Position numbers and translations under genes: made by a program
Notes under the pieces: generated by a model
Databases searched by the model: none
The model's input: the letters and a program-made list of their open reading frames with translations, nothing else
What the model was told of the DNA's origin: nothing
In this document: positions 2,429 to 60,040 of the stretch, one piece after another
Numbering within the stretch: position 1 is the stretch's first letter
Layout: each line of letters begins with the position of its first letter
Source of the DNA: Planctomycetota bacterium
GTDB lineage: Bacteria > Planctomycetota > Phycisphaerae > Sedimentisphaerales > Anaerobacaceae
NCBI GenBank assembly: GCA_023481165.1
Contig: JAMCWO010000191.1
Location: 1,434 to 65,433 of the forward strand
Length of the DNA stretch: 64,000 nt
Direction: 5' to 3'

Positions 2429-5400
2429 TCGCCCGGGGAACCGCCCGTACCGAAGCGTCAGGGCCGGCAGCACGAGGAGATTGAGGATGGTGGACGTCAC
2501 CAAACCGCCGAGGATCACGATCGCCATGGGGCCCTCGATCTCGCGGCCCGCTGTCCCTGTACCGACGACCAGGGGCAGCAGGCCCAGCCCCGTGACCAGA
2601 GCCGTCATCAGGATCGGAGCCAATCGCTCGGAAGCGCCCCGCGTGGCCGCCTCCGGGCCCCAGCTCATGCCCTCCACCACCACCAGGTGCTCATAGTGGG
2701 AAATCAGCATGATGGAATTTCGCAGCGTGATGCCGAACACGGTGATGAAACCCACCATGGCGCCAAGCGAAAGCAGGGTTCCCGACAGCAGCAGAATCAG
2801 CACGCCGCCGACCAGGGCGAAGGGTAGGTTCAGCAGGACCAGCAACACGTTGCGATGGTTTCGCAGCACGATGGACAGCAGGAGAATGATCCCGATGCCG
2901 GCCAGGGCGGAATGGATCTCCAGGTCTTCCGTGGCCCGCGCCTGGGCTTGGGCCGCGCCGGCAAATTGCACATAGGTCCCCGCGGGCAGGACCACGGAAG
3001 AGAGAATGTCCCGGCGGGCCTGGGCGACGAAGGAGTTGACGCTGCGTCCCTGGACATTGCACGTGATAGTCTGGACCCGCCGGCCGGTATTGTGCAGGAT
3101 CGTATAGCGCCCGGGGGCCTCGTAGATATCGGCCAGTTGCTGCAGCGGCAGGTACGTGCCGCCGGGACTACGCAGCGGCAGGGCCTGGATTTCATTGATG
3201 GAGCGGCGGTCTTGCGGGTCGAGGAAGACCGCCACGTTGAACACCTGGTCCCCCTGGTAGATTTGCCCCACCACAGCGCCCTGGTAGGCGGAACGAACCG
3301 CATCCAGAACGGTCACCGGATCGAAGCCCCAGCGCAGCAGGTCGCCTTTGCGGACCACAATCTCGATTTCCGGGCTGGTGGGCAGGGCCGCCATCGTAAC
3401 GTCGGCGGCCCCCGGAATCTGCTGCAGTAGATGCATGACTTCCTGCCCCAGGTCTTGGAGCACCTCGAAGTCCTGGCTGAAGATGTCGATGACAACGGCG
3501 GCGCCATAGCCGGAAAGTGTCTCGCCGATGCGTTCCGTCAAAAAGGAGTTGACCTGGTAGGTGATCCCGGGGAACTGGGCCAGCATCTGCCGCACCTGCC
3601 CGGGGGAATACCCGACCGGCGTTCCGCCGGCCGAGGCGAAGCTGATATCGATCTCGCTGGAGCCGATCCCCCGCGTGGATGAGCCCTCTTCGGCCCGGCC
3701 CGTCTTCTGGGACACGTACCGGGCATCCGGCAGCTTCAACAACTCACGTGAGACGAGGTCTCCCAGGCGCAAGGACTCTTCGAGCGAAGTCCCCGGGATC
3801 GTGTTGACGTGGACGATGGCATTGCCTTCCCGCAGGGAAGGCAGAAACTCCGTGTGCAGAAAGAAGAATACGATTACACCGATGACGATCAGGAGGACCA
3901 CAACGCCGATCGCTGCCCAGGGATGTCTGTCGACATGCCTGAGAATCCTGCCATACCCTCTTTTGAGCCAGCGTACCACAGGCGGCTCCTTTTCCACGTT
4001 CGGAGTACCGCCTTTAGGCGGGTAAGACTCTTCTGATCCGCGTAAACGCGGTACTGGGCTCCCCAACGCGCCGAGCAGCAGGGAAGATAGGGCCGGCGTG
4101 ACGGTAAGGGCGACCACCAGCGACGTGAGGACGGCCGCGATGTACGCAATGCCGAGGGGCGCAAAGAGCCGGCCCGCCACGCCGGACAAGGTCAGCACCG
4201 GGACGAATACCAGCACCACAGCGAATGTGGCGAATACCACGGCACTGCGAACCTCGATGGAAGCATCCAGGATCACCCGCAGCACCGGGCGTGGATTTTG
4301 CCGATGGCGATTCTCGCGCAGACGCCGCAGGATGTTCTCCACGTCGATCACGGCGTCGTCCACCACCTCCCCGATGGCCACGGCCAAGCCGCCCATCGTC
4401 ATCGTGTTGAGACTCTGACCGAAGTACCGCAAAACCGTCACGGCCCCCAGGAGCGATAAGGGAATGGCGATGATGGAGATGACCGCCGTGCGCCAGTTGA
4501 ACAGAAATAGAAACAGCACGATCGCGACCAGAATTGCTCCTATTCCCAGCGCCTGCTCCACGTTGCGCAGGGCCGTGTGAATGTAGGTCGCCGGGCGGAA
4601 GAGTTCCGAGTAGAGAACGATGTTCTCCTTCTGCAGCATCGGGCGCAGGTCCGCCACGGCCTGATCCAATTGCGAGGTGATATCGAGTGTGTTGGCCTGG
4701 TATTGCCCCGTAATCAACAGGACCACCCCAGGCTGTCCATTCACGGAGGCGGCCCCAATCGGCGGCGCCTCCGCCTCGACCACCTGTGCCACAACGCCCA
4801 GGGTCACGTTGGCTCCCTCGTGGTGCACCAGAACTGTCTGGGCCAACCCCTCCGGCGTCAGCGACTGGCCTTGCATCCGGAGCGTAAGACGCTGGTTGGG
4901 GGTTTCGATGAAGCCCGCCCCCCGGATGGCGGTGGCCTTGGCCCCGACGCGCAGCACATCGTCCATCGACAGGTTGTATTTGATGAGTTGCGAGGGCCGG
5001 ACCTGGATTTGTAGCTGTTTGACCTGCCCGCCGTAGACCTGCACTTGAGCCACTCCGGGCGCGGCCAGCAGCCGGGGCTTGATCGTCCAATCCGCAATCG
5101 TCCTAAGGTCCATGAGACTGCGGGTCTTCGAGGTCAGTCCCAACTGCAAGACCGTCCCGGTCGAGGAAGTCAGGGGCGAGAGAAAAGGCGTCACGCCTGT
5201 CGGCAAAGGCTCGGTCATCGAGGCCAGCCGTTCGGCCACCATCTGCCGGGCCCGATAGATATCGATGCCCGTATGAAAAACAATGGTGATGGCAGACAGG
5301 CCGTGCAGGGAAGATGAACGAAAGGACTCGATGCCTGCCACTCCACCGATGGTGTTCTCCACGGGCCGTGTGACCAGCATTTCCACCTGCTCGGAGGAAA

Positions 5401-5587
5401 GCCCCGGCGCTTCCAGCCGGATACTGACTTGCGGCGAGGTGAACTCGGGAAAGACGTCGTACTCGGTCTTCGTGAGAGAGTAGATGGCGTAGGCCGCCCA
5501 CAGAGCCGCCAGCGCGATGATGACGCCGCGAAAGCGTAGAGAGAAGCGAACGATGGCGGCGAGAATGCCTGTAGTCTCCAAGTTCAT
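2375..5587 (-). CDS. heavy-metal-efflux type RND permease (CzcA/CusA family)
   Basis: The true start, MNLETTGILAAIVRFSLRFRGVIIALAAL, is at 5587 and overlaps the upstream stop as ATGA. The product is 1070 aa. DVFPEFTSPQVSIRLEAPGLSSEQVEMLVTRPVE is typical of HME-RND N-termini. The protein is large with 12 predicted TM segments. The first 206 codons of the track ORF overlap the MFP gene and are not coding. Confidence 0.9.
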   Translation of the reverse strand: MNLETTGILAAIVRFSLRFRGVIIALAALWAAYAIYSLTKTEYDVFPEFTSPQVSIRLEAPGLSSEQVEMLVTRPVENTIGGVAGIESFRSSSLHGLSAITIVFHTGIDIYRARQMVAERLASMTEPLPTGVTPFLSPLTSSTGTVLQLGLTSKTRSLMDLRTIADWTIKPRLLAAPGVAQVQVYGGQVKQLQIQVRPSQLIKYNLSMDDVLRVGAKATAIRGAGFIETPNQRLTLRMQGQSLTPEGLAQTVLVHHEGANVTLGVVAQVVEAEAPPIGAASVNGQPGVVLLITGQYQANTLDITSQLDQAVADLRPMLQKENIVLYSELFRPATYIHTALRNVEQALGIGAILVAIVLFLFLFNWRTAVISIIAIPLSLLGAVTVLRYFGQSLNTMTMGGLAVAIGEVVDDAVIDVENILRRLRENRHRQNPRPVLRVILDASIEVRSAVVFATFAVVLVFVPVLTLSGVAGRLFAPLGIAYIAAVLTSLVVALTVTPALSSLLLGALGSPVPRLRGSEESYPPKGGTPNVEKEPPVVRWLKRGYGRILRHVDRHPWAAIGVVVLLIVIGVIVFFFLHTEFLPSLREGNAIVHVNTIPGTSLEESLRLGDLVSRELLKLPDARYVSQKTGRAEEGSSTRGIGSSEIDISFASAGGTPVGYSPGQVRQMLAQFPGITYQVNSFLTERIGETLSGYGAAVVIDIFSQDFEVLQDLGQEVMHLLQQIPGAADVTMAALPTSPEIEIVVRKGDLLRWGFDPVTVLDAVRSAYQGAVVGQIYQGDQVFNVAVFLDPQDRRSINEIQALPLRSPGGTYLPLQQLADIYEAPGRYTILHNTGRRVQTITCNVQGRSVNSFVAQARRDILSSVVLPAGTYVQFAGAAQAQARATEDLEIHSALAGIGIILLLSIVLRNHRNVLLVLLNLPFALVGGVLILLLSGTLLSLGAMVGFITVFGITLRNSIMLISHYEHLVVVEGMSWGPEAATRGASERLAPILMTALVTGLGLLPLVVGTGTAGREIEGPMAIVILGGLVTSTILNLLVLPALTLRYGRFPGRSGGLGGQEVDAAELDAL

Positions 5588-6651
5588 TTCCTGGCCTTCT
5601 TGCCTTTCTGTGCCTGCCGGTGCGCTTCCTGGGACAGAAGAAGCTGTGCCCCTCGGACGACGCACCACTGGCCGGCCGAGAAACCTTCCCGCACGAACCA
5701 GCCGCCGGAGACAGGGGTATTCGTGGGAATTTCCCGACGGACAAAGGTGTCCGGGCTCGTCTGCACGTAGATCCAGGCTCGGCCTTGCAGCCAGACGACG
5801 GCGGACGCGGGAACATCGATCCCGCGTATCTCCTGACCGGTCGGGAGAGATGCCACAATGTTCATGCCGGGCAGAAGACCCGTGGCCTTGGCCGGCGCCC
5901 GATAGAAGAAGCTGAATCCCTGGATGCGCGGGTCCGTCCGGGGAGACGCCGAAACGCAGGTGGCCGTTTCCGTCTTTCCAACGGGTGTCTCGATGGTCGC
6001 GCTTGGAGGGGGAGACAACAACTTCGTCCCTACCGGCACCGTGATCTGGATCAGCACCTCCTCCTGGTCCATCAATCGGACGAGCGGGGCGGAGTTTTCC
6101 TCGATCCATTGGGCGATTACAGGCCCCCACTGCTGCCGGAGGAGCGCCGTCTGAGAATGAAGCGCCACTTCCGCCGCCCGTGCCTGGGCCTGGTCCGACA
6201 GCCAAGTGGCCTGCGCCTTCTGGACAGCCTTTTCGGAGGTGCTACGATTGTCTTTATAGAGCGACTGGGCGCGGGTGTACTCCTCCCGCGCGGCCACCAG
6301 TTCGGCCTGGGCACTTTCCTGCTTCGCCTGGGCATCGGCGAAGCGGCTCCTGGAATCGGACAACTGCTGCGTGTCGGAAACAGTCCCGTAGGCCGTGACC
6401 TTCTCCTGAAAGGACATCAAGTTCAGCGGGGCCACCGCGATTCCCCCTTTCGTCTGCTGGGCCGGGCTCAACGTCACCTCATTGTGGTCCACCGGCTTGG
6501 GCGCCATCTTTCCGGCAGGTTGATTGGGATCCAGCGGCCTTCCGGTGCCCTTCCCGTGTCCCAGAATCCATGTCGCCAACAGGGCGCCGCCTCCCGCGAG
6601 GGTCACGACAGCCGTCCAGAGAAACACTCTATTCCTGATCTGTTCGGACAC
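5584..6651 (-). CDS. efflux RND periplasmic adaptor (MFP) subunit
   Basis: GTG start, an N-terminal TM anchor, a coiled-coil segment (AQAKQESAQAELVAAREEYTRAQSLY) and a beta-barrel C-terminus. It sits between the OMF and RND genes. Confidence 0.8.
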   Translation of the reverse strand: MSEQIRNRVFLWTAVVTLAGGGALLATWILGHGKGTGRPLDPNQPAGKMAPKPVDHNEVTLSPAQQTKGGIAVAPLNLMSFQEKVTAYGTVSDTQQLSDSRSRFADAQAKQESAQAELVAAREEYTRAQSLYKDNRSTSEKAVQKAQATWLSDQAQARAAEVALHSQTALLRQQWGPVIAQWIEENSAPLVRLMDQEEVLIQITVPVGTKLLSPPPSATIETPVGKTETATCVSASPRTDPRIQGFSFFYRAPAKATGLLPGMNIVASLPTGQEIRGIDVPASAVVWLQGRAWIYVQTSPDTFVRREIPTNTPVSGGWFVREGFSAGQWCVVRGAQLLLSQEAHRQAQKGKKARK

Positions 6652-6667
6652 GGCGTTATCATCTCCC

Positions 6668-8062
6668 TTACTCTTTGGGATTGGGGACCGAATCCTCGCA
6701 CACCAGCGGACGCATCACCGCATCCTCCAACGCACCTAACGCCTGCTGTACGCCGACGAACGATTGGAGTCGGGAGAGAGAGGCCGCGTTACGGTCCTGT
6801 TCCACGGTGAGAAGCTCCAGGCGGCTGATATCCCCCACTTCGAATTGTCTCTGGGCGATCTTCTCCTGGTCGGTGCGCTGCGCGAGAATCGACTCGGCCA
6901 CCTTCAGCACATCCAAAGCTTTGCTGTAACCGACCGCGGCCTGCTCCACCTGGCTGATCACGCTGATTTGCAGAGCGTAGAAGCGCTCTGCCGCTTCCCG
7001 GCGTTTCGCCTCGGCTGCCGCGATCGGTCCTTGGTTCTGATTGAAGATCGGCAGGGTTACGGCCAAGCCAATGCCCCACTCATTTTGTCCCTGGTCGAAC
7101 TCGTAGGCCGGTCCCAGGCTGATGTCGGGGTACTGCCTGGCAATCTCCAGTTGCAGGTCCGATTGGGCCGCCTGATAATCCGCCAGGGACGAGAGCACAT
7201 CGGGGCGACTCCAGAGAGCTGCCTTCCGTACCTCCGCGGCGAGCAGGCTGGAGGGGACCTTTTCGAGACACGTGAAAGACAGGTCGATCCTTGTCAGCGC
7301 CGCCTCCGGCAGAGCCAAAGCCGCCGCTAAGGCCGCCCGATCCTGGGCGATCTGCTTGCTCGTCCCAATCAAGGACAAGCGCGCCTGGTCCAGGGCGATG
7401 CGTGCCTGGCTGAGCACGAGCTGCGAGATTTCCCCACGCTGGAGCTGCTTCTCCTGCATCTCTACCGTCTGTTGCTGCAACCGGACTTGTTCCTGCTGAA
7501 GACTCTCGGTGTGGAGGGCCGTGTACAGGTTCAGGAGACTTGTCCGCACCCGGCTGTGCACCTGCCAGGCGAGCGTCGCTGTGTTCAGCCGCGCGGCCGT
7601 GGCGAGGTTCCGGGCACGCGCGATCCGGTAGCCGCGTTTGCCCGCCGTCTCGATCGGAGCCAGAACGGAGAAGTCCACAATCCACGGGGAAATCCCACCG
7701 CCCGTGTTGGTCACATACTGAGGTGTGAACCGTAGAGCCGGATGGGGCCATTGGCCGGCTGTCCGGATCCCGGCTTCGGCCACTTGCCATTGGGCTTGGG
7801 CGACCTTCACCTGGGGTTGGTAATAGCACGCGGCCAGCGCCAGCAGGTCGAGGCTCCATTGTTTGGGGGGCCACGGCGTCATTTCCCGATGAAGATCCGT
7901 CTCCAGGAAAGCCCTCACTTCCGAAGAATCCAGACGCCGGGCTTCGAAAGCCGCGGCTGATGTCTCGGGAGAGATGGGCTCATCCTGGAACGTGGTGCAT
8001 CCGGCGGTCACAGCCGCAAGCAAGACCAAGGCGCTGACGTTCCGGGCCATGGCGTTCCCCAA
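6668..8062 (-). CDS. TolC-like outer membrane efflux protein (lipoprotein)
   Basis: Lipobox LLAAVTAGCTTF. Two repeated long alpha-helical halves typical of outer membrane factors. It lies 16 nt upstream of the MFP gene. Confidence 0.8.
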   Translation of the reverse strand: MGNAMARNVSALVLLAAVTAGCTTFQDEPISPETSAAAFEARRLDSSEVRAFLETDLHREMTPWPPKQWSLDLLALAACYYQPQVKVAQAQWQVAEAGIRTAGQWPHPALRFTPQYVTNTGGGISPWIVDFSVLAPIETAGKRGYRIARARNLATAARLNTATLAWQVHSRVRTSLLNLYTALHTESLQQEQVRLQQQTVEMQEKQLQRGEISQLVLSQARIALDQARLSLIGTSKQIAQDRAALAAALALPEAALTRIDLSFTCLEKVPSSLLAAEVRKAALWSRPDVLSSLADYQAAQSDLQLEIARQYPDISLGPAYEFDQGQNEWGIGLAVTLPIFNQNQGPIAAAEAKRREAAERFYALQISVISQVEQAAVGYSKALDVLKVAESILAQRTDQEKIAQRQFEVGDISRLELLTVEQDRNAASLSRLQSFVGVQQALGALEDAVMRPLVCEDSVPNPKE

Positions 8063-55985: not shown

Positions 55986-56022
55986 CACCGAACGTCCTCA
56001 TGGGCAGTTCAAGAGACCATCC

Positions 56023-57306
56023 TCACTCTGTCTTTGCGTGGATGAAGTATGCGAGATCATCTGTCTTCTTTGAGGTACGCTCGGACAACAACGCATCCGC
56101 CGCCCGCTCCCCCAGAAACCAGGAGTCCCTCAGGTCCTTTCCCACGGAGTACACCGCCGCGTCTGCGCGCGAATAACGGAATGGCTTACCGTCAAATGGG
56201 TCACGCGGCACCGTGCCGAGCAATTCCGGAACGAGGGCATCGAGAGTCTCCGGCAATCGGCCGTGACGCATTTCATAGAGCCGACAAGCAACCACAAGCC
56301 GGAGACCATCGAGATGGCTCTGGGTACGGCAACGTCCGGCCAGGAAACCGTTCAGATAATCAGGTCTGGGCATGCCCAATTTGACCATACCGTTGGGTCG
56401 AAGCAGCAGCAGGAGTTTTTGCGGTCCTTCGGAGGGATTGGGTTCGGGTGCCGGCAGGTCCATCTCGGAATAAGGCCGGGAGAAGTTCTTGATCATCGTG
56501 CGACAAAAGCAGGCAAAATCCGCCTTCGTTCGATTTGGCTGAAAGATATAGCCGCTAATGACCCTGTGCTTTGCCCCGGTGCTTTCGGCGGCCTTATCGA
56601 TTCCCCCGCTTATGAGTCCATACTCCATCTTGATGGCTTTGACCCACCCTTGTTCAAGAGGTGCCGTCTGACTCAGCCGATCCGACAACGAGACGAGTTC
56701 GGCCTCATCAAGCGCCAACTCACACAGCAGTCCCCCCACGGCCTTGAGCCCCCGCCCAATAACGACCATACCCACCACACAATCAATGAGGCTGGTGGGG
56801 TTTGCCTCGACAAGAGACCCGAACCGCAGAAGGCCGTAGCAGTCTTCCCGGGCAACTCCGGCGTGGCCTGTCCGTACGTCGTGTGCAGCCTTCAGAGCCA
56901 TGAGCTTGGACATGTCGTTCCTCTGCCAGAGCGGCCTGGGGTCGCTCGATTCCGGCTCATCATGAGGCTCGTAAGCCGGGCAGGCAAGGCCCTGCTTCAG
57001 CAGAGCAAGAGTTTCGGCGTTGCGGGAGATCAAGTCGTCCACATACGCCTCATCCCATTTCTTACCAGGGAGCATTGCCTCTACCTTACGGTCATCTTTG
57101 GGCCACTGGAAGAGCTTGAATGCCTCCAGGAAGAGAGTATATGCGTTCTCGTCGCCGGATGCCTCGATCGGAGCGGACACGAGATCGGACGTATCCGGAG
57201 GGTCGATGTCCCGGCTGTTGATCACAATCCAACCCACCGCGCACAGGGACAACACCGTCATCGTGCGTCCGACCACACGCAGCAGTATTCTCACACGTTT
57301 GCTCAT
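56023..57306 (-). CDS. membrane-anchored hypothetical protein
   Basis: The ATG at 57306 gives MSKRVRILLRVVGRTMTVLSLCAVGWIVI, an N-terminal anchor. The C-terminus LPETLDALVPELLGTVPRDPFDGKPFRY is common in PVC hypothetical proteins. Confidence 0.55.
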   Translation of the reverse strand: MSKRVRILLRVVGRTMTVLSLCAVGWIVINSRDIDPPDTSDLVSAPIEASGDENAYTLFLEAFKLFQWPKDDRKVEAMLPGKKWDEAYVDDLISRNAETLALLKQGLACPAYEPHDEPESSDPRPLWQRNDMSKLMALKAAHDVRTGHAGVAREDCYGLLRFGSLVEANPTSLIDCVVGMVVIGRGLKAVGGLLCELALDEAELVSLSDRLSQTAPLEQGWVKAIKMEYGLISGGIDKAAESTGAKHRVISGYIFQPNRTKADFACFCRTMIKNFSRPYSEMDLPAPEPNPSEGPQKLLLLLRPNGMVKLGMPRPDYLNGFLAGRCRTQSHLDGLRLVVACRLYEMRHGRLPETLDALVPELLGTVPRDPFDGKPFRYSRADAAVYSVGKDLRDSWFLGERAADALLSERTSKKTDDLAYFIHAKTE

Positions 57307-57619
57307 GGCCCACACGATATCAAGTATCGAATGCCTCCTCAAGCCAGAAGGTCGCTCGCCAGGATTGAATGATGAACACCGCGCATGAGAAGAAGCCACA
57401 ATAAGACGGTGGGACGTATGTGACAAGCAAGAACGCAGGAAGTCCAGGACCGTTCTGTTTCTCCATGCTCATAGTTACGGCGATTCCCATCCAGCGAATG
57501 TTGATGGGGAGATCGGTAGCCAGTAAGGGATCTATCCACCGCCTTCTGTCGTCGGGCTTCCCAACCTCTGCGCCCCAGTGTCTCTGTGCGAAATCAGATC
57601 GGCCCTTTGGTGGGGAGTT

Positions 57620-57800
57620 CACAGTTGCCAGTTCTCAATTCCCGGCAAGAGAGGGGCAACTTTACCCTACCGCCTCCAGCTTGCCATGAATATTTCTGCG
57701 GAATTCTGCCTTTTTGCGGCAACAGGCGGGCGCCGAGAAGCGTCTTAGTATGGTGAAACTATATAGTCACAGTTGTCGGTTGGCAGTTCTCAGTTCCCGG
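57620..57800. repeat. two copies of CACAGTTG..AGTTCTCA(A/G)TTCCCGG
   Basis: 57620-57645 and 57768-57800, in direct orientation. Confidence 0.6.
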
Positions 57801-57924
57801 GCCAAACGGGGGCTCAGAGTCAGGGGGCGGCCCCTGGTCTCGCGGGGGGCCGAGATACCCCAGCATCCTACTATTCTATCATTCGACCATTCTCGGCGGG
57901 GCCGGGTGGGGCGCGCGACGAAAT

Positions 57925-58409
57925 GTGCAAAACGAACCCAATCTCCCGATTGCGGATCTCGGATTGCGGATTGCGGATTGGGACGGAGTTGCGGCGGGAC
58001 GCTTGCTCTGCGGCTGCCGCGTCCGACCCACGCCGGGTCTGCTGCACAAACAAACCCAATTTCAGAAGGGGCAATCGTGCGAAACGAACCCAATTCGGTG
58101 GGTGTCAAATGTGCGAAACGAACCCAATTTGGCCCCGTCCGGGCACGGCCTCGATGGACAAAAGATGCAAAACAAACCCAATTCGCCGGCCGGCGCGCTG
58201 GGGCGGGCCGGACCGATCGTGCCAAACAAACCCAATTTCCGGATGAGGCATAATGAAGTTAACCGCTGTTGCGCCAAATGGTTACAGGAGTTTGGAGGGG
58301 CTTGCCGGTCCTGCAAAACAAAGCCAATTGGGGATAAGTGCGAAACAAACCCAATTTCAGGGACGCGGCTTGGGGACGGGGGTAATTGCGCGCAAAACGA
58401 ACCCAATTT
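57925..58409 (+). repeat. array of nine direct copies of a 20-nt motif, consensus GTGCRAAACRAACCCAATTT
   Basis: Copies lie at 57925, 58043, 58077, 58111, 58165, 58219, 58311, 58338 and 58390, all in the same orientation. The gaps are 98, 14, 14, 34, 34, 72, 7 and 32 nt. Confidence 0.8.
57948..57982. repeat. heptanucleotide microsatellite (GATTGCG)n
   Basis: Five units: gattgcg gatctcg gattgcg gattgcg gattggg. Confidence 0.8.
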
Positions 58410-58523
58410 CCGGCGGTCGCCATACTCCGCTATCTCAGTAGGGTATCGGCGAGCGAGACTTGTCGTCACCACACGGCCAAGGGTCGTTGTGGATGCGGTG
58501 GGATTCTGCTAAGATGACAGGAC

Positions 58524-59858
58524 ATGTGTGACAACCTGGAGCAAAGCATCGTAACAGTGAGGAGTCATGTCGTGAGTTCACGCAACAAGCTCAGTAGCAA
58601 TGCCATCAGCCGGCGGGAGTTTCTGCGGTCGTCCGCCCTGGCGGGTGCGGCGGTCGCCGTGCCGACCATTGTTCCATCCTCCGTATTCGGGGCGAACGCC
58701 CCATCTGAGCGGGTCACCATTGGCTGCATCGGGGTTGGGAATATGGGCAGCAGCGACTTGAAGGCGTTCAAGGGTAATACGAATGCCCAGGTGGTGGCCG
58801 TGTGCGAGGTGGATGCGCAGCGGCTCCAGGAGGCCCGCAAGCTGGCGGGGATCGACCAGGGGTCCTGCTATGGGGACTTTCGCGAGCTTCTGGCGCGGCG
58901 GGACATCGACGCGGTGACCGTGGTCACGCCGGACCATTGGCATGTGCCGATCTGCCTGGCCGCGGTCCGGGCGGGCAAGGATGTGTACTGCGAAAAGCCG
59001 CTGACGCTGACGATCCGGGAGGGCCGGGTGCTGGCCAATGAGGTGAAACGCTATGGGCGCGTCTTGCAGACGGGGTCGCAGCAGCGGTCGAGCGCGGAGT
59101 TCCGCCAGGCCTGTGAGCTGGTCCGCAATGGCTATATCGGCGACGTAAAGACCGTCACGGCGGGCCTGCCCGGCAACAACCGCAAGTGCGAGCCAACGTG
59201 GACACCGGAGCCGGTGCCGGAGGGTTTCGATTACGATATGTGGCTGGGCCCGGCCGAGTGGGCCCCCTACCACAGCCAGCGTTGCCACTACCAATTTCGT
59301 TTCCTCCTCGACTATTCGGGCGGGCAGGTGACCAACTGGGGCGCGCATCACCTCGACATCGCCCAGTGGGGCCTCGGCACGGACGATACCGGGCCGGTCC
59401 AGATCCTCGGCCAGGGCGAGTTCCCCGCCTCCGGCCTGTTCACCACCGCGACGAAAGTCTACTTCGAGATGACCTATGCCAACGGCGTCAAGCTCATCTG
59501 CAAGACCGGCGGCTCCGGCACGCGGTTCGAAGGGACCAAGGGCTGGGTGGATGTGAAACGCGGCAAGCTGGTGACCGAGCCGGCGTCACTGCAAACACAG
59601 ACCATCGGCGCCAACGAGATTCACCTGTACGAGAGCAGGAACCATCACCAGAACTTCCTCGACTGCATCAAGAGCCGCCAGCAACCAATTGCCAACGTCG
59701 AGGTCGGCCATCGTTCCGCGACGCTGTGTCACCTGGGCAATATCGCCATGCTGCTCAAGCGCCCGCTGAAGTGGGATCCGGTCAAAGAGGAGTTCGTCGG
59801 CGACGCTGTCGCCAATCGCATGCGCTGGCGGCCGCGGCGGGCCCCGTGGAATGCGTGA
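58524..59858 (+). CDS. Gfo/Idh/MocA-family oxidoreductase with a Tat signal
   Basis: SRREFLRSSALAGAAVAVP is Tat-like and IGCIGVGNMGSSD is the Rossmann motif. A likelier start is the GTG at 58572, after GAGGAG. Confidence 0.8.
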   Translation: MCDNLEQSIVTVRSHVVSSRNKLSSNAISRREFLRSSALAGAAVAVPTIVPSSVFGANAPSERVTIGCIGVGNMGSSDLKAFKGNTNAQVVAVCEVDAQRLQEARKLAGIDQGSCYGDFRELLARRDIDAVTVVTPDHWHVPICLAAVRAGKDVYCEKPLTLTIREGRVLANEVKRYGRVLQTGSQQRSSAEFRQACELVRNGYIGDVKTVTAGLPGNNRKCEPTWTPEPVPEGFDYDMWLGPAEWAPYHSQRCHYQFRFLLDYSGGQVTNWGAHHLDIAQWGLGTDDTGPVQILGQGEFPASGLFTTATKVYFEMTYANGVKLICKTGGSGTRFEGTKGWVDVKRGKLVTEPASLQTQTIGANEIHLYESRNHHQNFLDCIKSRQQPIANVEVGHRSATLCHLGNIAMLLKRPLKWDPVKEEFVGDAVANRMRWRPRRAPWNA

Positions 59859-59890
59859 CGCGGGCTGAGGTTTACTCGCTGCGCCGTGTC

Positions 59891-59990
59891 TGTCATCCTG
59901 AACGAAGTGAAGGATCTGGGCTGCGAGGGAGAGCAACCCCTCATGTGATGGCTGGATCCTTCACTCCGCTGCGCTGCGTTCAGGATGACA
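59891..59990. mobile_element. MITE-like element, TGTCATCCTGA family (copy C)
   Basis: TGTCATCCTGAACGAAGTGAAGGATCTGGGC ... GGATCCTTCACTCCGCTGCGCTGCGTTCAGGATGACA. It lies between convergent genes. Confidence 0.65.
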
Positions 59991-60040
59991 AACGTTGCGC
60001 ATAGGCTGATCACGGTCGGTCCGATACGGTCTGCGCCGTC

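Follow-up and report, generated by a model that had tools for sequence, protein, structure and literature searches.

A nine-copy 20-nt repeat array in planctomycete intergenic DNA is a gene-less module of a widespread repeat-plus-protein unit

Why does one long intergenic region of a planctomycete contig carry nine same-strand copies of a 20-nt motif, and does this array belong to any known class of bacterial repeat?

The array and its genomic setting

The array lies within the window, by which we mean the whole 64-kb stretch of DNA that was analysed. The initial annotation had counted nine plus-strand copies of GTGCRAAACRAACCCAATTT at 57925-58409, and this count was borne out, against a chance expectation of 0.01. 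A pattern search that allowed up to three mismatches found eight copies, with starts at 57925, 58077, 58111, 58165, 58219, 58311, 58338 and 58390, all on the plus strand; none of 100 shuffled sequences reached eight. The ninth, copy 2 (CTGCACAAACAAACCCAATTT, 58042-58062, plus strand), has a 1-nt insertion and was recovered by a direct-repeat search. The start-to-start spacings noted at the outset (118, 34, 34, 54, 54, 92, 27 and 52 nt) were reproduced by the repeat search. Elsewhere in the 64-kb window neither strand had a further copy, even when the search was relaxed to a 13-nt core.

Copy 1 (GTGCAAAACGAACCCAATCT, 57925-57944) holds the first in-frame start codon of a 195-aa ORF (57925-58512), and is followed directly by a plus-strand heptamer tandem repeat, (GATTGCG)x4.7. 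Tandem Repeats Finder (TRF) placed this microsatellite at 57948-57980, with a period of 7 and 4.7 copies, and so confirmed it. Copies 3 (58077-58096), 4 (58111-58130, an exact match to the consensus) and 5 (58165-58184) were found by both the pattern and the repeat search. Copy 6 together with its 72-nt spacer (58219-58310) makes up the sole full-length unit of about 90 nt in the window array, in which a GGAGTTTGG block appears, by eye, to be the counterpart of a GGAGTTAYG block in 90-nt units elsewhere. Copies 7 (58311-58330, the most diverged, with three mismatches), 8 (58338-58357, again exact) and 9 (58390-58409) came from the pattern search. Spacers between the copies range from 7 to 98 nt. 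Upstream of the array, the reported CACAGTTG..AGTTCTCARTTCCCGG pair is also real (57616-57645 and 57771-57800, 83% identical).

The array does sit in a long intergenic region, as first described, but the end of that region, originally given as 58523, had to be moved. The downstream Gfo/Idh/MocA gene most likely starts at GTG 58572, which is supported by a GAGGAG Shine-Dalgarno sequence, a twin-arginine signal and an exact 428-aa product on record. The region therefore spans 57307-58571, which leaves 162 nt between the end of the array and the start codon rather than the 115-160 nt proposed earlier.

Comparison with four orthologous loci (84-90% amino-acid identity), none of which contains the motif, showed that the array lies in a lineage-specific block of about 1.08 kb (57427-58509). 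Two of the four loci include their intergenic region in full (236 and 281 nt). Repeat search and orthologue alignment further showed that a 25-nt imperfect direct repeat (76%) borders the block on both sides, with its left copy at 57402-57426 and its right copy at 58510-58534, both on the plus strand. The right copy is part of a conserved sigma-70-like Gfo/Idh/MocA promoter (58487-58534, plus strand), with a -35 element TTGTGG (58487-58492), a 17-nt spacer and a -10 box TAAGAT (58510-58515); all five orthologues align at the -10 box, and the -35 element and the spacing were taken by eye from the same alignment. The left copy duplicates the -10/+1 part of this promoter in decayed form, and on the minus strand it contains a promoter-like site, TTGTCA-17-TATTGT, pointing to the upstream gene. 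The array thus has the decayed duplicate on one side and the functional promoter core on the other, and lies 5' of the only promoter identified at the locus. Being in lineage-specific DNA upstream of the conserved promoter, it is not the leader of the Gfo gene.

Could the array instead act in cis on the Gfo/Idh/MocA gene or on the divergent upstream gene, as an activating or operator array, a set of promoters or a 5' leader? It is on the Gfo strand, 100-590 nt 5' of the promoter, and by inspection other arrays also precede genes with twin-arginine signals (loci L054 and L118, and less clearly L077). However, the orthologous loci retain the promoter without the motif, and arrays at other loci are unbiased in orientation to their neighbours, with the downstream gene on the same strand in 25 cases and on the opposite strand in 26, and a 5'-leader role for arrays was rejected on this ground. 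The earlier suggestion of a multi-promoter array found no support either: no plus-strand promoter-like sites were found inside the array and no conserved sequence stands at a fixed distance 3' of the motif copies. We consider a cis-regulatory role very unlikely.

A two-part unit of motif array and helical protein

The search of related genomes called for by the initial annotation found an 18-mer core of the motif at 118 genome loci at least, mostly in Planctomycetota and nearly always in intergenic, same-orientation arrays. The idea of a lineage-specific expansion was not upheld: arrays of the same 18-mer occur in many Planctomycetota, Bryobacterales, Methylophilaceae and Verrucomicrobiia. They are chromosomal, with several per genome, and the window array fits their description, which is at least two same-strand copies of the consensus (T)TGCRAAACRAASCCAATT(T) in non-genic DNA. 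Inverted partner copies of the motif were seen at a minority of the other loci. Spacing peaks at 21, 32, 42 and 53 nt were also apparent, from a few non-independent arrays.

The sequence common to the window array and the other loci is the 20-mer alone, with AAAC..CCAAT as its invariant positions. Within the window, motif copies are 84.5% identical pairwise (range 75-100%), while the spacers are 34.6% identical, which is the level of shuffled sequence; the spacers of the 34/34-nt pair are likewise at shuffled level. As the copies are alike and the spacers no more alike than shuffled sequence, this pattern indicates that the 20-mer is under constraint. The apparent constraint could stem from a mechanism that adds modules of motif plus new spacer, rather than from purifying selection.

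All-against-all BLAST of the ORFs that flank the arrays produced only one cross-phylum family, an all-helical protein of about 190 aa with a basic N-terminus. It is very large (29,973 clusters at 50% identity), and has no family-wide match in Pfam, NCBIfam, PHROG or PADLOC. A weak PHROG match of one alphaproteobacterial member to a small terminase subunit (E = 0.004) was not reproduced in other members and was set aside. The AlphaFold model is a helical hairpin (pLDDT 85.5), and three Foldseek searches with two such models returned generic coiled-coil matches (E > 0.4) and no structural homologues. Neither the family nor the fold searches revealed a recognisable nucleic-acid-binding fold, and the protein shows no transposase, recombinase or HUH signature. 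Its invariant residues cluster in the N-terminal 40, the conserved basic N-terminus reads M.T.AQI.ANRRNAQKSTGPRT.EGKA.VSQNAVKHGL, and the signature of the family gene is ANRRNAQKSTGP...KHGL...LLMYERRIE.

The link between gene and array was also seen from the protein side. We fetched 80 metagenome loci by protein alone, 67 of which have at least 300 nt of downstream DNA, and in 61 of these 67 a same-strand motif follows within 400 nt of the family gene's stop codon. No motif was found upstream of the gene in these loci, and opposite-strand matches anywhere numbered only two. At L223, for example, from a 62% G+C assembly, nine copies of (c/t)gTGCGAAACAAAGCCAAT come directly after the family gene, on the same strand and irregularly spaced. 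The complete unit consists, in order, of a promoter, a 5' leader with heptamer repeats, the gene for the protein of about 190 aa and a same-strand array in which the A/C-rich 20-mer alternates with spacers that vary; no other gene was found to co-occur with it. Heptamer tandem repeats also adjoin arrays or the family gene elsewhere (L215, L135, L054 and L076), as one adjoins the window array.

Most arrays stand apart from the gene. Among 48 arrays that were fetched by motif and have at least 900 nt of upstream DNA, the gene is present in five, leaving 43 (about 90%) solo. In the 64-kb window neither tblastn nor a profile HMM (--max) found any trace of the family gene, and the window array therefore belongs with the solo arrays, the commoner state. 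It is a gene-less repeat module of a widespread two-part unit for which we found no description.

Several other identities for the motif or its surroundings were tried and rejected. An origin in phage was not supported, as the motif gave only 11 single matches among 2.9 million viral contigs. A CTCTACA 'leader' was unsupported as a promoter in a consensus scan, and units that possess gene and leader together contradict the idea that it is what is left of the family gene's 3' end. ECF, sigma-54 and sigma-32 promoters, and likewise dif, parS, IHF and CsrA sites and a resemblance to the tRNA T-arm, were compared by eye with consensus sequences and mismatched in spacing or sequence. In the literature the motif string was found only in unrelated primers, and nothing relevant turned up on planctomycete repeats or promoters.

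Translation and known repeat classes

Is the array translated? The window region had been called non-coding, and the tests available for G+C-rich arrays agree. The alternative, which we judge unlikely, is that the ORF opening at the GTG of copy 1 encodes a low-complexity repeat protein or an orphaned C-terminal extension of the family protein. In A+T-rich relatives, one frame is open in 29 of 30 ninety-nt units, compared to 2.7 +/- 1.6 when variable columns are shuffled. This frame begins at an ATG inside the first copy (MQNKPNF). ORFs read from that ATG have a median length of 184 nt, and the other two frames give 34 and 48 nt. In the G+C-rich L223/L224 subfamily, an ORF reads through the array to a common conserved tail, RARPRVAYHYHN, where the two sequences differ, as judged by eye, mainly at third codon positions. 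Simulations gave an ORF as long as that in the window in 1.5% of cases by mononucleotide shuffle and in 3.4% under a first-order Markov model. Against translation, five of the eight window spacings are not multiples of three, so that copies of the motif fall in all three reading frames; 57925 has no Shine-Dalgarno sequence ahead of it, and the ORF's stop codon doubles as the -10 box of the following gene. Stop trinucleotides in G+C-rich arrays are not significantly depleted: 38 were counted where 48 are expected, and the opposite strand has 25. The motif is conserved at the nucleotide level, keeping A/T-ending codons in 60% G+C genomes, and in the A+T-rich units the third codon position does not vary more than the other two (entropy by codon position 1.09, 1.27 and 1.23). 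Given the open frame in A+T-rich arrays and the read-through in one G+C-rich subfamily, part of the constraint on the motif may be translational.

The initial annotation could assign the array to no catalogued class, and none was found to fit. Short direct repeats in a single orientation with variable spacers would suit a structured non-coding RNA array, a CRISPR-like array or replication/partition iterons, yet these have next to no chance of being the explanation. Folding of the window array was no better than that of shuffles on either strand (z-scores +0.24 and +1.22), and no covarying secondary structure was seen: RNAalifold found no pairs on 33 related ninety-nt units, including those of a compensatory hairpin suggested by eye for the 90-nt unit. 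Rfam gave no match at E <= 1 in window positions 56000-60000 and none on the arrays of 26 other loci. With no terminators and no consensus structure either, the proposed sRNA array found no support. CRISPR arrays have repeats of about 23-50 nt and near-constant spacers; here the repeat is 20 nt and the spacers measure 7-98 nt. The ORFs tested within about 5 kb included no recognised cas or rep gene. Pfam detected no cas domain in eight neighbouring ORFs (a VIT transporter, methyltransferases, an LPG synthase and unannotated proteins), and no cas-like family is enriched near arrays at the 118 loci. Plasmid iterons, also suggested at first, recur at a regular spacing of about 22 bp with a rep gene at an origin, whereas the window array is irregular, has no rep domain in the neighbouring ORFs tested and no rep gene in the window, and is one of many chromosomal arrays per genome. 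Type III toxin-antitoxin (ToxI-like) repeats, of about 34-36 nt in tandem, lie upstream of an endoribonuclease toxin gene; the arrays described here lie downstream of their partner gene, are irregularly spaced and have no PADLOC match.

Some known systems are nevertheless similar in part. Plasmid iterons and centromere repeats (parC with ParR, and omega-protein heptad arrays) are direct repeats beside the gene of a small cooperative binder. The array beside a small-protein gene resembles these, and they are what the window array would work like; in contrast, its spacing is irregular, no partner ATPase or Rep gene accompanies it, each genome has many arrays on the chromosome, and solo ones lie far from any copy of the gene. 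RAYTs are HUH Y1 transposases. Like REP/BIME elements with their RAYT (the REPtron), the motif is a short sequence clustered between genes, with a single cognate gene flanked by the repeat and far outnumbered by repeat clusters. Unlike them, it is non-palindromic, without an internal inverted repeat, its copies are strictly direct with unrelated spacers, and its cognate protein matches nothing in Pfam or NCBIfam and folds as an all-alpha hairpin in the model. In PMC3733652, REPs are described as palindromes that carry a GTAG or CGTC tag. As with MITEs and their autonomous insertion sequences, gene-less copies are numerous and have a cis sequence in common with the rarer copies that carry the gene, the elements are multi-copy, and presence or absence at orthologous sites is insertion-like. 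However, there is no recognisable transposase and there are no terminal inverted repeats, the window having no minus-strand copy; the common sequence is reiterated internally rather than being terminal, and the flanking repeat, at 25 nt and imperfect, would be unusual for a target duplication. TAACTGA heptamer direct repeats of Beggiatoaceae, Cyanobacteria and Bacteroidetes (MacGregor 2015, PMC4679880) are similar in kind to the heptamers in the family gene's 5' leader, although they are 7-nt contiguous tandems with no cognate gene identified, as opposed to a 20-nt motif with variable spacers. Rhodopirellula-1 (Planctomycetes/Proteobacteria) and Solibacter-1 (Solibacter) are multi-copy intergenic motifs suspected to be repetitive elements, with no Rfam accession in the paper's table (Weinberg 2010, PMC2864571). 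The former is a bulged hairpin (AACAAACGGAUGAAC...GUUAUCC..UGACGUU) and the latter a three-stem junction (PMC2864571); their alignments differ from the present motif in sequence and structure, and neither identity was accepted.

A possible recognition platform

What, then, might a solo array do? Of the roles proposed initially, binding sites for a DNA-binding protein come closest, and candidate protein recognition sites are still the best reading. Most economically, the 20-mers would be sites lined up for recognition by a trans-acting factor. We tentatively propose that the solo array is a multi-site recognition platform for such a factor, with the family protein as the best candidate, supplied in trans by a complete unit elsewhere in the genome. 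The basic N-terminal segment of the protein might contact the motif, and its long helical hairpin could drive oligomerisation along the array. Strict same-strand polarity, together with the evidence for translation of A+T-rich arrays, would favour RNA as the bound form, whereas the random orientation of solo arrays to their neighbours would favour DNA.

The main rival, which we think somewhat less likely, is that the window array does nothing: the gene-array unit would be selfish or mobile and spread by some route, and solo arrays would be its inert, non-autonomous or truncated remnants, akin to MITEs or solo ends. The motif-free orthologous loci and the repeat-flanked block would be consistent with this, as would the high proportion of gene-less arrays and the occurrence of the gene-array unit in many unrelated contexts with sharp boundaries. 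Most family genes are on contigs of 0.7-2 kb and many arrays are at contig ends, as expected of repeats that break assemblies. An apparent IS transposase ORF, judged from sequence, lies between two arrays at L107, a group II intron abuts the array at L054, and the family gene is found on viral contigs and in prophage recombination modules. However, simple decay would erode motif and spacers alike, and here the motif has been conserved between randomised spacers. The protein's lack of a transposase, recombinase or HUH signature and the absence of terminal inverted repeats in the window also argue against it, and no empty-site polymorphism was seen among the fetched loci, where orthologous units are retained at 83-100% flank identity.

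Beyond the recognition platform proposed for the window, the 20-mer arrays and the helical protein of about 190 aa may, again tentatively, constitute a new class of protein-plus-repeat system, present in some phages as well as in several bacterial phyla. Its protein would recognise a motif reiterated in the protein's own 3' region and at many detached chromosomal sites, in a system that might be RNA- or DNA-organising, regulatory or self-propagating, and that we would provisionally regard as unrelated to CRISPR, REP/RAYT, iterons and known transposons.

The nine-copy array points to a large repeat-plus-protein system, represented by thousands of sequences in Planctomycetota and other bacteria, for which no description was found. 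Beyond what the window sequence alone reveals, it points to the array being the detached partner of a specific, very large and unannotated protein family. If the link holds, this family, with its roughly 30,000 clusters at 50% identity, gets its first functional handle in the form of a 20-nt partner sequence. A common and unexplained trait of planctomycete intergenic DNA, seen as long spacers full of repeats, as contig breaks and as spurious 'NKPN / KQTQF / TNPI' ORFs in annotated sequences, would also become directly testable. Gene callers now extend or invent ORFs over these arrays, and recognition of the motif would remove such errors.

The array in the window and its local history

The intergenic region upstream of the Gfo/Idh/MocA gene holds nine + strand copies of GTGCRAAACRAACCCAATTT at 57925-58409, as the initial annotation had described. 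Eight were found by a pattern search of the window at ≤3 mismatches (chance expectation 0.01; none of 100 dinucleotide-preserving shuffles attained eight copies). The ninth (58042-58062), with a 1-nt insertion, was recovered by a repeat finder, which also reproduced the spacings first reported (118, 34, 34, 54, 54, 92, 27 and 52 nt). The motif is indeed confined to the array, with no further copy on either strand of the 64-kb window, even with a relaxed 13-nt core. Conservation is specific to the motif: pairwise identity of the nine copies is 84.5% (minimum 75%), compared with 34.6% for the spacers, and the two 34-nt spacers are alike only at shuffle level (0.59 vs 0.56 ± 0.055). This reflects either purifying selection on the 20-mer in an array that has no gene, or array growth by the addition of modules of motif plus new spacer.

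The Gfo/Idh/MocA gene most likely starts at GTG 58572, which has a GAGGAG Shine-Dalgarno sequence, a twin-arginine signal and an exact 428-aa product on record. The motif was absent from all four orthologous loci that we compared, in which Gfo/Idh/MocA has 84-90% amino-acid identity to the window's protein. Two of them span the whole intergenic region, which measures 236 nt in L133, where the divergent upstream gene is kept, and 281 nt in L134, compared with 1,265 nt in the window. An alignment of the five promoter-proximal regions showed an aligned and conserved -10 box; judged by eye, each region also has a -35-like hexamer 17 nt before that box. As this conserved + strand promoter occupies 58487-58515 in the window (-35 TTGTGG, 58487-58492; -10 TAAGAT, 58510-58515), the array lies upstream of it, outside the mRNA leader.

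About 1.08 kb including the array is without counterpart in the four relatives, and is flanked by a 25-nt imperfect direct repeat (76%; 57402-57426 and 58510-58534). The left copy, an imperfect copy of the Gfo -10/+1 segment, has a minus-strand promoter-like TTGTCA-17-TATTGT facing the upstream gene, and the right copy has the plus-strand TAAGAT box. The repeat is the duplicated core of overlapping divergent promoters, so that the block sits between two copies of a bidirectional promoter core. We read the block as a lineage-specific insertion or expansion. Two other repeats noted at the outset proved real: the GATTGCG microsatellite, (GATTGCG)x4.7 at 57948-57980, and, inside the inserted block, a duplicated 30-mer (AGTTCACAGTTGCCAGTTCTCAATTCCCGG; 57616-57645 and 57771-57800, 155 nt apart), which has a counterpart in none of the 118 motif loci listed.

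Distribution of the motif

An exact scan for TGCRAAACRAACCCAATT, with one genome per species, returned at least 118 loci. By our own arithmetic ~70 exact matches are expected by chance in 596 Gb, and isolated matches inside genes of unrelated phyla therefore carry little weight. Among the matches listed, Planctomycetota (Pirellulales, Phycisphaerae, Sedimentisphaerales, Planctomycetales and Isosphaeraceae) have the motif in clusters of 2-12 copies, nearly always in a single orientation and many of them at contig ends. Bryobacterales, Methylophilaceae and Verrucomicrobiia likewise have clusters of several copies, which argues against the earlier suggestion of a lineage-specific repeat, and Ignavibacteria have two dispersed copies with conserved flanks.

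The window's array is a member of this wider family, the 20-mer being the only sequence common to its intergenic region and the other motif loci. Arrays of its type occur in the G+C-rich genomes L054, L067, L076, L101 and L107, where unrelated G-rich spacers come after (c)gTGCRAAACRAASCCAATT. A stereotyped element of ~375 nt is found in A+T-rich genomes; its parts are a leader, TTATGCAAAACAAACCCAATTT, units that measure exactly 90 nt, and runs of a 10-11-nt CAAACCCAAT(T) repeat.

Several loci have additional features. At the end of some arrays (L014, L053, L060, L073, L074, L099, L006 and L079) a direct copy meets an inverted copy, giving a 17-18-bp perfect hairpin, AAAACGAACCCAATTTT-loop-AAAATTGGGTTCGTTTT, that is bordered by runs of A and T and resembles a bidirectional terminator. 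In alphaproteobacterial MAGs (L019, L038, L047, L106, L113 and L086) single motif copies lie within a longer conserved multi-copy intergenic element, ..GCCACTAAATAGCTGATTTAT..TGCGAAACGAACCCAATTTCGCGTAAG..CGCTCTATTTGGCCTTGATGGTTGAGTT, that has no Rfam match. A group II intron (RF02005, 124 bits) lies ~1.1 kb upstream of the 12-copy array of L054 (5231-5427 and 6545-7300), and L107 has, judged from sequence only, a putative IS4/IS5-type transposase ORF between two arrays. Arrays may be favoured landing sites for other mobile elements.

A partner gene and the complete unit

All-against-all BLAST of the ORFs from the 118 motif loci listed yielded one genuine cross-phylum family; the sole larger cluster consisted of repeat translations. 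The family protein has ~190 aa, an N-terminus of the form M.T.AQI.ANRRNAQKSTGPRT.EGKA.VSQNAVKHGL and a C-terminal part with RLLMYERRIEHSLYKTILELQRL. It matched no Pfam, NCBIfam or PADLOC family, had no significant PHROG match and no sequence match in the PDB. A word-indexed search gave 4,012 clusters (90% identity), none with a name beyond 'hypothetical' and most of them from contigs of 0.7-2 kb, and an exhaustive profile search gave 29,973 clusters at 50% identity with E ≤ 0.001 (12,514 with E ≤ 1e-10). AlphaFold, from a 130-sequence alignment, modelled the protein with confidence (pLDDT 85.5) as all-alpha; its dominant feature is a long antiparallel hairpin of helices 69-100 and 149-180, and the invariant residues cluster in the N-terminal 40 residues. 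Foldseek searches of the models against the PDB, and of a first, lower-confidence model also against BFVD, gave generic coiled-coil matches only. Public calls of the gene (P0246, P0247, P0249, P0364, P0386 and many others) are often 250-450 aa long, since the called ORF runs on through the repeat region, where stops are scarce, and carry artefactual or low-complexity tails (NEPN, KQTQF, TNPI, TYEIR).

The link between gene and array is strong and directional. We fetched 80 metagenome loci through the protein alone, and this sample is therefore independent of the motif. A same-strand motif core was present ≤400 nt past the stop codon in 61 of the 67 loci having ≥300 nt of downstream DNA; the first copy lay 20-335 nt downstream, usually with more copies at +90 and +21 nt. 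No protein-fetched locus had the motif upstream of the gene, and there were only two opposite-strand matches anywhere. The shared unit begins ~50 nt ahead of the start codon and ends with the array; its flanks are unrelated and no other genes travel with it.

Several loci (e.g. L180, L185, L200 and L216) have a near-consensus sigma-70 promoter upstream of the gene (TTGACA, 17 nt, TATAAT). Its 5' leader consists of tandem heptamers just before the Shine-Dalgarno sequence, for example AATTACC x12 in L215 (2893-2981), and further heptamers follow the stop codon. Heptamers are also present in L135 (2900-3000 and 3580-3640), L054, L076, L083 and L107. They accompany arrays consistently, with a conserved 7-nt period and variable sequence (GATTGCG, AATTACC, GGTAGTC, ACGAGAT and others). 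These tandem heptamers resemble cyanobacterial STRR repeats. They also recall the TAACTGA repeats of Beggiatoa described in MacGregor 2015 (PMC4679880).

On its sequence, L223 (62% G+C; 3001-5825, GCA_040961015.1) is the window's array type in its complete context: the family gene is followed directly by nine same-strand copies of (c/t)gTGCGAAACAAAGCCAAT, spaced by 128, 57, 67, 104, 57, 70, 104 and 57 nt. This array comprises three superunits of ~231 nt, and the complete unit lies ~200 nt upstream of a DnaA-family gene. In an alphaproteobacterial MAG (L081, twice; 5796-7774) and the viral contig L122 (4734-7066), the family gene follows an ERF-DUF968 (HNH-like) fusion gene; in L122 a YqaJ exonuclease gene also precedes it and a large terminase gene is present. 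This setting is that of a prophage-like recombination module, with a motif variant 18-20 nt before the family gene ATG, and together with L010 (2-400) suggests that part of the family may be of phage origin or phage-spread.

Only 5 of the 48 motif-fetched arrays with ≥900 nt of upstream DNA have the family gene, among the matches listed. The window's array is likewise solo, tblastn and an unfiltered profile HMM having found no trace of the gene in the 64 kb. Solo arrays are the rule, and that of the window is therefore a detached copy of the repeat module.

Coding, structure and mode of action

Of 30 ninety-nt units in the A+T-rich relatives, 29 keep one frame free of stops, compared with a mean of 2.7 ± 1.6 (maximum 10) in variable-column shuffles. 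That frame starts at an ATG within the first copy (TT ATG CAA AAC AAA CCC AAT TT, encoding MQNKPNF) and spans ≥90% of the array in 74 of 109 cases. Third codon positions of these units are no more variable than the others (entropies 1.09, 1.27 and 1.23). In one G+C-rich subfamily the gene ORF continues through the array to a shared tail, RARPRVAYHYHN, where L223 and L224 differ, by eye in these two sequences, mainly at third codon positions. G+C-rich arrays have spacings that are not multiples of three (five of eight in the window's array), and stop trinucleotides in them show no significant deficit (observed 38, expected 48, opposite strand 25). An ORF of 195 aa (57925-58512), in a frame open from 57757, starts at the GTG of copy 1, covers the entire array of the window and has its stop inside the following gene's -10 box; equally long ORFs arose in 1.5-3.4% of one-frame simulations. 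Its C-terminus, ..TTRPRVVVD, bears a faint likeness to the RARPRVAYHYHN tail of the read-through proteins. We conclude that the motif acts at the nucleotide level and that arrays lie at least sometimes within translated mRNA; coding of the window's array is not established.

The structure analysis proposed initially gave no sign of a fold: the array folds at shuffle level on both strands (z-scores +0.24 and +1.22), and RNAalifold found no consensus pairs for 33 ninety-nt units. The array has no + strand promoter-like site and no terminator-like site. Nor are arrays biased in orientation relative to flanking genes (low-G+C loci among the matches listed: downstream gene on the same strand 25, opposite 26; upstream gene 15 vs 16).

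We infer that a trans-acting factor recognises the 20-mers. The family protein would be the most economical candidate; it might use its conserved basic N-terminus for binding and its helical hairpin to oligomerise. Same-strand polarity and the translation of A+T-rich arrays favour RNA as the bound form, whereas DNA is favoured by the random way in which solo arrays are oriented, by the location of the window's array upstream of a promoter and by the occasional 17-18-bp palindromes of inverted pairs. In the main rival reading, solo arrays are what remains, inert, of a selfish unit. Support for it comes from their presence at some orthologous sites and absence at others, from gene-less copies being in 10:1 excess and from their assembly-breaking behaviour; the motif-specific conservation and the lack of recognisable transposition machinery count against it.

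Judged by their defining criteria, the array belongs neither to CRISPR, plasmid iterons, REP/BIME-RAYT, MITEs or type III antitoxin arrays nor to any Rfam family. Rhodopirellula-1 and Solibacter-1, which have no Rfam accession in the table of Weinberg 2010 (PMC2864571), differ from the array motif in sequence and structure. Closest in logic is REP/RAYT, with dispersed repeats and a cognate gene flanked by repeats; closest in presumed action are the arrays of centromeres or iterons to which small oligomerising proteins bind. Rfam matched neither the array's region in the window nor any array in 26 other loci. Motif and protein family were both without a match in Pfam, NCBIfam, PHROGs, PADLOC, Rfam and the searchable literature; on these negative searches and the mechanism we propose, the gene-array system would be new in kind.
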